Assembly: GCA_964016885.1 (NCBI GenBank)
Contig: CAXHJY010000796.1
Coordinates: forward strand, 1 to 64,000
Length of the DNA: 64,000 bases
Direction of reading: 5' to 3'
Origin: Eledone cirrhosa
Lineage: Eukaryota
The notes beneath the pieces are model-generated. The model searched no databases. It was not told the origin of the DNA and saw nothing but the letters and a program-made list of their open reading frames with translations. Shown one piece after another: positions 38,644-41,794 of the stretch. The position numbers were made by a program, and so were the translations under genes. Numbering within the stretch: position 1 is the stretch's first letter; each line of letters starts with the position of its first letter.

Positions 38644-38790
38644 ATATATATATATATATATATATATATATATATATATATATATATATATATATATATA
38701 TATATATATATATATATATATATATATATATATATATATATATATATATAAGTCTCTAGCTGTGTCATTCTCGATAAAAGCACTGGATAT

Positions 38791-38833
38791 GTAGTCCTGA
38801 AGATTTCTAACAAGAATGAAACGCGTAGATTAC
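38791..38833 (+). ncRNA. Type I minimal hammerhead ribozyme, copy 1
   Basis: gtagtc CTGAAGA t-ttct-aaca-agaa-t GAAA CGCG TA gattac; predicted cleavage after GUA 38827. Enclosed by a perfect 16-bp stem, 38767-38782/38840-38855. Confidence 0.88.
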
Positions 38834-39100
38834 TTCCCTTGCTTTTATCGAGAATCTAATTGTAATACGTGACGTATTCTATTCTATAGCGATTAGGTCT
38901 TCAAAATGTTTATTATAAACATACAGAATATTTTCGAATATTCTATGTCTATATTCACATATATATCGCTATTTCAGAGCATTTATTCCAATTTCTAATT
39001 TCTGCCGGACCGGCAACCGCTCTTTCAAACCAGTTCCTGTACACAGCTAAGTATTCTATAAGTCTCTAGCTGTGTCATTCTCGATAAAAGCACTGGATAT

Positions 39101-39143
39101 GTAGTCCTGAAGATTTCTAACAAGAATGAAACGCGTAGATTAC
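39101..39143 (+). ncRNA. Type I minimal hammerhead ribozyme, copy 2
   Basis: Identical to copy 1; predicted cleavage after 39137. Confidence 0.88.
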
Positions 39144-41794
39144 TTCCCTTGCTTTTATCGAGAATCTAATTGTAATACGTGACGTATTCTATTCTATAGC
39201 GATTAGGTCTTCAAAATGTTTATTATAAACATACAGAATATTTTCGAATATTCTATGTCTATATTCACATATATATCGCTATTTCAGAGCATTTATTCCA
39301 ATTTATATATATATATATATATATATACATATATATGGAGTGGGGACCGTGTGTGTGTAAGTGTGTGCTTGTGTACATGTGTGTGTGTGTACATGTGTGT
39401 GTGTGTGTGTGTGTTTGTGTGTGTGTGCACGAAAAGAAATATTTATCAATCGTAATAATGACTATTTTCTATAGGTTAATTTGTAGCGTGTTAATTTTCA
39501 ATTGTTGACAATATACAAGGTGAATATTGAACTTCAATCAAATCAATGGATTATAAATATATTCTTTTTCTCTTTATTTACGAAGGACGGAGGTGCTTTA
39601 GCTGAGAAGTGAGAAATCGATATTGAATATATATTCATAATGGGATAAACAACTAAAATGATTAACCATAGTGTACAATTTCGAGATAAACTTTGCTCTC
39701 TTCTCTCAGGCTTACTCTTTCTCTTCCCTTCTATCTCTCTCTCTCTCTCTCTCTTTCTCTCTCTTCACCTTTCTCTCTCTCTCTCTCTGTCTCTCTCTCT
39801 TTCTCTTCACCTTTCTCTAGCTTCCACCCTCTCCCTCGCTCTCGCTCTCGCTCTCTCAACCTTAAAATATATACACATATATGTATATAATTATGTATGA
39901 ATGTGTATAAGTATGATTATATATACATATATGCATGTAAATATTTATTAAGATATATATATGAATATATTTATATATATACATATATATATATATATAT
40001 ATATATATATATATATATATATATATATATATATATATATATATATATATATATTATTTCAGGTATCACATCGAAGCTGAAGCTGCAATAGAGCAACACC
40101 AGTCGAATTATTTGAGGTGGTCTCTAAATACTCAATGATGCGAGAAATGTATTAATTCTTTCATCAGAGTGAGCACATTAAGTTATACGGGGAAAAACTA
40201 TGAATAATATATAGACCACCTATGCTGCCACAGCATATATCAACAACAAAGATGGCGAATACCATAAGAGAAGAGAAATTCCACTAAGAAGTTATTGGTA
40301 AACTCGAACACGATTGCGCAAGGTGTGCCGCAGTGGGGTTGAACAGAGAACTAAGTGGTTGCAAAACGAACTCCTTAACAACATACCAGTTCTTCTTCTT
40401 CTTCTTCTTCTTCTTCTTCTTCTTCTTCTTCTTCTTCTTCTTCTTCTTCTTCTTCTTCTTCTTCTTCTTCTTCTTCTTCTTCTTCTTTGCCACATATTCC
40501 TGGGAGGGTCATTCTTCTTCTTCTACGACTATATATAAAAAAATGTAAAATTAGTCTCTTACTGAAAATTTGTCTTAAATCATCAGTGATGTTTTGAGCA
40601 TTGGGTATGGGACTACAACGTTGTCTGCCGAGCTGTTTGGGCTGCAATTAAGGTGTAGATTAAATCGATTGATCAGTCACGAAGTGTCAATTAGTCTATT
40701 GTTATTTAAGTGAGATTTACGACTAACTAAATACATCTCTGCTTTAGCTATAGCAAAGAGACCCCCAGAGAAAAACACTGCCATAAACAATATTGACTTA
40801 CTAGTAAGCTTAATTTAATTTTAATTGTTCTAACTTCCATCACTTGCCATGTTTAGCCTTAGACAAATGCCATTGGTTTTAGCAGTCGAGATATATACAT
40901 ATTTACATACACATAGACGCACAAATATATACATACATATATATATACACACACACACAATCACACACATATATATATGTATGTATATTTGTGTATGTGT
41001 GTATATATTAACACATGCATTGAGAGTATCTAACTGGCAATAAAAATATAATATGTAACAGCTGAGTTTCACTTCGGGTTTTATGATTAGTCAGGTAGGA
41101 AACTAACCCTTTCCTACACACACATACGCATAACACTCTCTCAGACATACATACATACATACATACATACATACATACATACATACATACATACATACAT
41201 ACATACATACATACATACATACATACGCATACGTATCCCACTTGCTAATTATAGATGGCCAAAGAGACAATATAAAAAGAATAAACTGAAGTATCTGGTA
41301 CAAAAGGAGACAGATAGGGCCTACATTTTCAATGAGAAGGTCACAGCAGTTGTGTTGTAAGATCTTTCACAATTAAATAACCATCATGCTGTTAAATCGA
41401 CCAATGAAGGGACTAGTTACCGAAATAATTAAATAAACTGAAGTAAATCTCATTCGGGGAGTGAGTTGGCAGTATGACCCTCCCAAGCTATAACAATATA
41501 TGTTTCAACACACGATATCACATCAACAACTTTGCAAAATAAATTAAAAACGAATTGTATATATATATATATATATATATATATATATATATATATATAT
41601 ATATATATATATATATATATATATATATATATATATATATATATAAATGAAAAGTATAGAAATTATTGTAGCAAGAAGCCAACAGTATTCCATAATATAT
41701 AATATATATATATATATATACATGTTGTGTTAGTTAATTCCGAAAAAAAAGCAAAGGAAAAAAGAGTGCTCTATGTATAGAACAGAGCTATTTA

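Follow-up and report, generated by a model that had tools for sequence, protein, structure and literature searches.

A family of 310-nt hammerhead retrozymes in Eledone cirrhosa with the insertion ends of Penelope-like elements

We analyzed a 64,000-nucleotide stretch of the Eledone cirrhosa genome (contig CAXHJY010000796.1 of assembly GCA_964016885.1, hereafter the window). It contains a retrozyme insertion inside a (TA)n tract, preceded by the end of a Penelope-like element (PLE) of a family that we call PLE-A. The features of the locus are as follows.

38288 to 38507, plus strand: 5'-truncated PLE-A end (pLTR), 220 bp, 92 to 96% to loci L101/L110
38501 to 38750, no strand: left (TA)n target (sequence, TRF)
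38747 to 39304, plus strand: single-armed retrozyme insertion, 1.8 units of 310 nt (repeat searches, end mapping)
38767 to 38855, plus strand: perfect 16-bp helix prolonging stem I, 38767-38782 with 38840-38855 (folding)
38791 to 38833, plus strand: hammerhead 1, type I (sequence, folding, descriptor scan)
38828 to 39137, plus strand: predicted 310-nt monomer between the two putative cuts (circular fold, -67.8 kcal/mol)
39101 to 39143, plus strand: hammerhead 2, identical to hammerhead 1, predicted cut after 39137
39262 to 39276, plus strand: site B, the short family end (unit positions 203-217, mostly 208)
39268 to 39304, plus strand: tail of about 35 nt, from site B to site A
39304 to 39336, no strand: right (TA)n target (sequence, TRF)

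TRF recovered the tandem repeat at 38747-39304 with a period of 310, 1.8 copies and 100% matches, and a direct-repeat search returned two 251-nt copies, 310 apart and 100% identical. This bears out the perfect direct repeat of about 248 bp described in the initial annotation, the gap in length being due to TA bases shared with the flank. The insertion within (TA)n was likewise confirmed, with tracts on both sides. The copy is 5'-truncated at about unit position 308 and ends 3' at site A, the long end of the family (unit positions 238-251, mostly 243, here 39302), with no end at site B. The insert holds no open reading frame of 90 aa or more; the window has 175 ORFs, mostly microsatellite frames. 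The flank downstream of the copy is single-copy, and a search for an empty or allelic site of this locus found none. As the window is a 64-kb unplaced contig, the tandem could in principle be an assembly duplication of one unit. We regard this as vanishingly improbable, since the unit-to-unit joint is also present in contigs from two other sequencing runs, tandem arrays occur in 38 of the 38 best-matching loci of the genome, and the 1.8-unit form with a site-A end and a single-copy downstream flank fits the family pattern.

Sequence, folding and descriptor scan agree with the earlier claim that each unit carries a type I hammerhead core with paired stems I and II. In hammerhead 1, stem I pairs 38791-38796 with 38828-38833 (6 bp including one G.U), the core CUGAAGA occupies 38797-38803, and the 4-bp stem II (38805-38808/38813-38816) is followed by GAAA. 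The palindrome ACGCGU spans 38821-38826, and the GUA triplet ends at 38827, the predicted cut; the second motif lies at +310. The conserved core (C3 U4 G5 A6 N7 G8 A9, G12 A13 A14, A15.1-U16.1, H17) is present, and the motif has the helix I of about 6 bp, helix II of about 4 bp and short palindromic helix III of type I. The usual G10.1-C11.1 pair is missing, the first stem II pair being U.U in the window haplotype; G10.1-C11.1 is highly conserved, yet not invariant, in type I hammerheads (PMC4209133). The same pair is A-U in the 55A subfamily, and U.U in the AGCT family and in two families described below, family B and PLE-B.

The hammerhead had also been called minimal, which did not hold: because the perfect 16-bp helix prolongs stem I, the window motif is a canonical type I hammerhead. 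In the canonical metazoan type, a short palindromic helix III is expected to act as a dimer (PMC4209133), and we computed -9.5 kcal/mol for the palindrome duplex. The segment 38760-38862 folds far better than shuffles (z -5.75, 0/200), its reverse strand does so too (z -6.33), and the 46-nt hammerhead core alone folds no better than shuffles (z -0.76). With a descriptor requiring a paired stem I, only these two motifs were found in the window, and a looser descriptor added a third at 38323. The Rfam search proposed earlier as a check returned no hammerhead at the gathering score over the whole window and none at E<=10 over 38400-39700. Self-cleavage after 38827 and 39137 is a prediction; in a vertebrate survey, cleavage was seen in only one of nine tested dimer elements (10.64898/2026.07.22.740005).

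Applied to the whole genome, a loose hammerhead pattern gave 36,782 matches (control 0), which include another tandem family with a 420-540-nt period and internal (TA)n (L111:9060, 9571). On the minus strand of the window, 42860-43000 is an inverted-arm insertion. Its arm contains CUGAUGA, GAAA and a stem that starts with U.U; this may be a shortened hammerhead belonging to a further small family.

The PLE-A end, overlooked in the initial annotation, is an insertion separate from the retrozyme in the same (TA)n. A minimal U3-A8 hammerhead lies within it at about 38327-38364, and downstream the final 14 bases of the PLE-A end recur three times as short re-started copies with (TA)n between them (38288-38650). 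These copies break the left (TA)n tract as the motif CCTCACTTTCTAAT at 38570, 38601 and 38632, and they look like repeated aborted priming. Further repeats in the window are a 97-bp-period direct duplication with internal (TA)n, 100% identical (49595-49790, TRF), a SINE-like direct duplication with a 161-bp period (36584-36905, TRF), and fragments of a LINE-like reading frame split by (TA)n (24352-24934), presumably resembling RTE-type C-termini. A SINE-like repeat near 38002-38240 is one that we take to be octopus-like.

To describe the family, we searched the 3.0-Gb genome for exact hammerhead cores. The core of the window type occurs 858 times, a loop variant 2,618 times and the CUGAUGA form 13,444 times, against 0 for the controls. 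The sum of these three exact patterns sets the total at 16,920 units or more. An exact site-A/(TA)n junction pattern occurred 1,120 times, which puts the insertions at 1,120 or more. Only about 5% of the units have the window haplotype. A search with the unit scored 169 candidates, 39 of which contained a total of 228 matches. Our sample comprised 79 loci, namely the 38 best-matching ones, 40 on contig C1 drawn from the matches listed for each core type, and the window. They are dispersed over several large contigs, without LTRs, and their flanks are unrelated except for (TA)n. Tandem arrays reach 28.5 units at L196, and an array of more than 35 units lies at C1:183.18 Mb. Short non-coding tandem units with one type I hammerhead each, in dispersed arrays, are the non-LTR type of retrozyme, so that the class assigned initially stands. 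The event had also been judged recent. In agreement with this, the family is young: the first 39 loci, a set chosen for best match, contain 211 full units, and 166 of these match the window unit at every base. The literature search retrieved no description of a cephalopod retrozyme or of this family, although supplementary lists may hold such families, and metagenome contigs gave no match to the unit.

The unit also turned up in other public sequencing runs. Twenty runs from 17 studies (16 without the possible source), with 18 organism labels, contain 0.72-0.97 of the unit words (window 38750-39059), and three of them (X1, X12, X6) were assembled around the unit. In run X1, 80% of the cores are CUGAUGA; the genome share is 13,444/16,920, or 79%. 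An RNA quasispecies or selection in an RNA pool was considered for X1 and rejected, as the genome shows an equal CUGAUGA share; because its core mix equals that of the genome, X1 is best read as DNA of the same or a very close species. From each of the foreign runs X12 and X6 came a single flankless, closed contig of 310 nt; the two contigs match the two haplotypes seen most often among the first 100 genome matches listed. Low-level carry-over of a very high-copy repeat most likely explains the units in foreign runs, and we consider horizontal spread to other organisms quite unlikely. For one organism label, one sample contains the unit words and another next to none. None of the runs listed is an RNA run, which bears on expression neither way.

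We then examined the ends of the insertions. The initial annotation had argued from a permuted, greater-than-unit insert. This argument fails, as variation is confined to the 5' end and the 3' end takes one of two set positions. Indeed, across the 79 loci the 3' ends lie at site B or site A, about 35 nt apart, and nearly all abut (TA)n, and the 118 breakpoints at 5' ends are spread across the unit. Moreover, most insertions carry two inverted arms, which the initial annotation had missed: 60 of the 79 loci, the window copy not among them, consist of two divergent arms. Where both ends of such a locus are visible, one arm ends at A and the other at B in 57 of 58 cases, with no A/A and no B/B combination; in the remaining locus, an older copy, one end lies at 227. 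Thirteen of the 19 one-armed loci end at B and five at A, including the window, and one has a masked end. At the inversion junctions, the arms overlap by 1-48 nt in 41 of 59 cases (lengths that BLAST extension may inflate), 7 junctions are blunt and 11 have a gap. The flanks are (TA)n with few exceptions, such as L049 and L193.

PLE insertions are marked by an inverted 5'-truncated copy and by a 30-40-bp tail on one end only (10.1101/2021.04.23.441226). For an anole PLE in vitro, this tail is the stretch between two internal reverse transcription start sites, both target strands are cut and extended, and the protein is predicted to be a dimer (PMC11167929). Both marks recur in the retrozyme family, together with the microsatellite target of PLE-type insertion, and its end anatomy is the "tail plus inverted copy" signature of PLEs. 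Site B would accordingly be a start of reverse transcription. The literature search returned no report of PLE-type ends on retrozymes, though supplements may differ.

Aligned with the ends of three PLE families, the unit gave z values of -0.5, 2.1-2.2 and -0.4. These values show no clear homology to the three sampled ends and, together with the dispersed tandem arrays, support the earlier view that the unit is not merely the terminus of an autonomous Penelope element; the adjacent PLE-A end was ruled out as its parent by its alignment (z -0.5). The suggested linkage to a Penelope RT/GIY-YIG frame was not found either: the window has no PLE protein match by tblastn, no long RT frame was seen beside the retrozyme, and the unit was not found in 50 GIY-YIG loci. 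The retrozyme acts like a PLE passenger and is not itself a PLE.

We therefore looked at the PLEs of the same genome, which has 10,595 GIY-YIG candidates, of which 150 were scored. PLE-A (L101) has a 938-aa RT and GIY-YIG frame and copies at 91-99% identity; at L157, a PLE-A copy whose 5' start is nearly that of the window copy follows a family B insertion. PLE-B (L231-L250) is a young, intact EN+ PLE, younger than PLE-A, with a 4.2-kb unit and two overlapping frames. In 67 of its 69 scored copies the match is free of stops, mostly within 775-aa frames, at 98-99% identity. PLE-B forms full-length 4.2-kb tandems and inverted arms in (TA)n. It obeys the end rule of the retrozyme, pairing a short end with a long one in nine of nine two-armed loci with both ends visible (13 loci examined). 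The PLE-B hammerhead has the CUGAAGA core and the U.U pair of the unit, and the PLE-B end is the weakly similar one (z 2.1-2.2). Tails measure about 63 nt in PLE-A and about 41-63 nt in PLE-B, versus 35 nt in the retrozyme. Judging from these sequences, PLE-B is a candidate source of the enzyme for the retrozyme, and it may itself travel as a circle.

The two arms of an insertion mostly carry the same variant. Among the 24 C1 loci with both arms covering positions 20-200, which represent 15 haplotypes, the arms share their haplotype in 22, and the two exceptions differ by one base; shuffled arm pairs match 2.3 times on average and at most 10 times in 10,000 shuffles. The L200 haplotype has four exact matches in the genome, all at its own locus, two per arm. 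The second of the two haplotypes tested, that of L187, is not private, with 337 copies at many loci; therefore, homogeneous arrays can also stem from homogeneous source arrays. Markers of the subfamilies in L180 and L187 (unit 80-81; a one-base insertion and A>G) lie 3 nt or less from the predicted cut/ligation site. The arms cross the predicted cut site repeatedly, and only one of the 118 breakpoints at 5' ends falls within 5 nt of it (4.2 expected if uniform), so the template was continuous there. The circular template proposed initially is thus supported by the arm haplotypes and by the continuity at the cut site, but not by permuted ends. Additionally, in 10 of the 79 loci only part of the units carry a given variant, and several of these patterns repeat every 2-4 units. 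These point to later block duplication or to multimeric templates; in the absence of either, a pure monomer circle alone does not give part-shared variants.

The variants that became fixed in arrays are not random with respect to the predicted RNA structure. There are 26 distinct array-fixed substitutions; all six in predicted helices keep a plus-strand pair (A-U or G.U), and none hits the hammerhead core. Of 98 singleton substitutions outside positions 203-220, by comparison, 7 keep and 29 break pairing and 2 hit the core, a control that may include assembly errors and junction misalignments. The difference in helix-keeping (6/6 versus 7/36) gives a Fisher p of 3e-4, for a structure predicted from the window haplotype. 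We count this as support for selection acting on the plus-strand RNA of the unit, as far as the predicted structure holds.

An older sister, family B, has a period of about 315, 2,843 candidates and a GUU/GUC site (L070:2440-2865; L149-L178). It is colinear with the unit over its full length (z 25-38), and changes on both sides have kept its 16-bp helix. By inspection, it mostly ends at the two homologous sites, with the exceptions of L152, short at both ends, and L156, which has an intermediate end. Family B was considered as the end of a PLE and rejected: the adjoining GIY-YIG frame at L070 has the opposite orientation, and PLE protein sequence lies near only one of 30 family B loci.

We consider it probable that a PLE reverse transcriptase/endonuclease copies hammerhead-cut, circularized 310-nt monomers into (TA)n, the window copy being one such insertion. 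Arrays would be transcribed on the plus strand, and neighboring hammerheads are predicted to pair via the ACGCGU palindrome and to cut as dimers. A host ligase would close the 310-nt monomer, by analogy with the circles described in PMC7229834. An EN+ PLE protein would cut both strands of a (TA)n tract, and cDNA would start from each DNA end at one of the two fixed internal sites, which lie about 130 and 165 nt downstream of the predicted cut site. Each cDNA would circle the shared template a varying number of times before microhomology links the two at their 5' ends, which would yield the observed pair of diverging arms with a common haplotype. The window copy would be a one-armed product primed at the long site. 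That a dimeric PLE-type enzyme copies one circle from two sites at once, for up to 27 turns each, before a head-to-head join has, in our judgment, an even chance of being correct.

A circle explains both the uniformity of the arrays and their continuity at the cut site. An uncut transcript of a uniform array explains both as well, but accounts less easily for the spread of new variants through whole arrays. PLE-driven insertion could then proceed from a linear, uncut, multimeric transcript of a homogeneous array, and cutting and circles would be unneeded for spread. Indeed, the anole PLE did not need hammerhead cleavage to insert in vitro, where uncut RNA was its main substrate (PMC11167929); the arrays at L196 (28.5 units) and C1:183.18 Mb (more than 35 units) are possible long homogeneous sources, and both the L187 haplotype common to many loci and the part-shared variants in 10 of the 79 loci would fit. 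Nevertheless, we hold a linear template to be unlikely. New variants would need a one-unit bottleneck to fill both arms, whereas a private haplotype fills both arms of L200 and 24 loci show 15 haplotypes; no array in the sample mixes two subfamily haplotypes, and array-fixed variants spare the hammerhead core and stems.

The arrays could also be satellites that unequal crossing-over or slippage expanded in place, starting from one PLE end, as has been proposed for vertebrate retrozymes (10.64898/2026.07.22.740005). Some local duplication is visible in the periodic part-shared variants of L040, L052, L053, L211 and L032, and the same (TA)n tracts often contain fragments of PLE ends. As the main route, however, local growth is already largely refuted, and we rate it as very improbable: it leaves unexplained the two fixed ends, one per arm, in 57 of 58 loci, as well as 5' breakpoints that fall at random and show microhomology (overlap at 41 of 59 junctions). 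Furthermore, inverted arms have identical haplotypes while singletons stay unhomogenized, and no parent PLE end was found.

The family can be compared with three kinds of related elements. The non-LTR retrozymes of metazoans (coral, mussel, axolotl) likewise consist of non-coding, low-GC tandem units of 150-450 bp, and PLEs have been named as their likely mobilizers (PMC7229834, PMC7761336); they too have one type I hammerhead per unit and dispersed multimeric arrays (PMC7229834). Metazoan retrozymes have been shown to cleave and to form circular RNA (PMC7229834); in the 310-nt family both are predicted. Fixed twin ends, inverted arms and (TA)n targeting, on the other hand, are absent from the descriptions of metazoan retrozymes in the main accounts (PMC7229834, PMC7761336); the main text of PMC7229834 contains neither "inverted" nor "microsatellite" and names no cephalopod. 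Vertebrate non-LTR retrozymes likewise form tandem type I units, alongside EN+ PLEs whose enzymes they are proposed to use (10.64898/2026.07.22.740005). There, the link to PLEs consists of co-occurrence and pLTR homology, and local growth is favored (10.64898/2026.07.22.740005). In the 310-nt family, by contrast, we found no pLTR homology and deduce the PLE link from how the insertions end; arrays seem to be inserted at full length. EN+ PLEs share with the family 5' truncation, partial tandems, an inverted copy, a tail on one end, AT-rich or microsatellite targets, two reverse transcription start sites and a hammerhead in the repeat (10.1101/2021.04.23.441226, PMC11167929). The retrozyme differs from them in having no ORF, a 310-nt unit and up to 27 turns per arm, and its hammerhead is canonical with a 16-bp extension, whereas that of EN+ PLEs is minimal.

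The circular template and the PLE enzyme stand as hypotheses in the literature (PMC7229834, PMC7761336). In this family, which is young enough for single insertion events to be read, the insertion anatomy favors the circle-plus-PLE route over local satellite growth. The predicted priming sites are exact, and together with the one-template rule and an intact candidate enzyme in the same genome they make the route testable at the bench. The family also offers an explanation for the tail and the inverted copy of PLEs. If one circle is indeed copied from two sites at once, a single RNA molecule would be cloned in every insertion, and selection on the RNA circle would shape the family, like a viroid that replicates through the genome.
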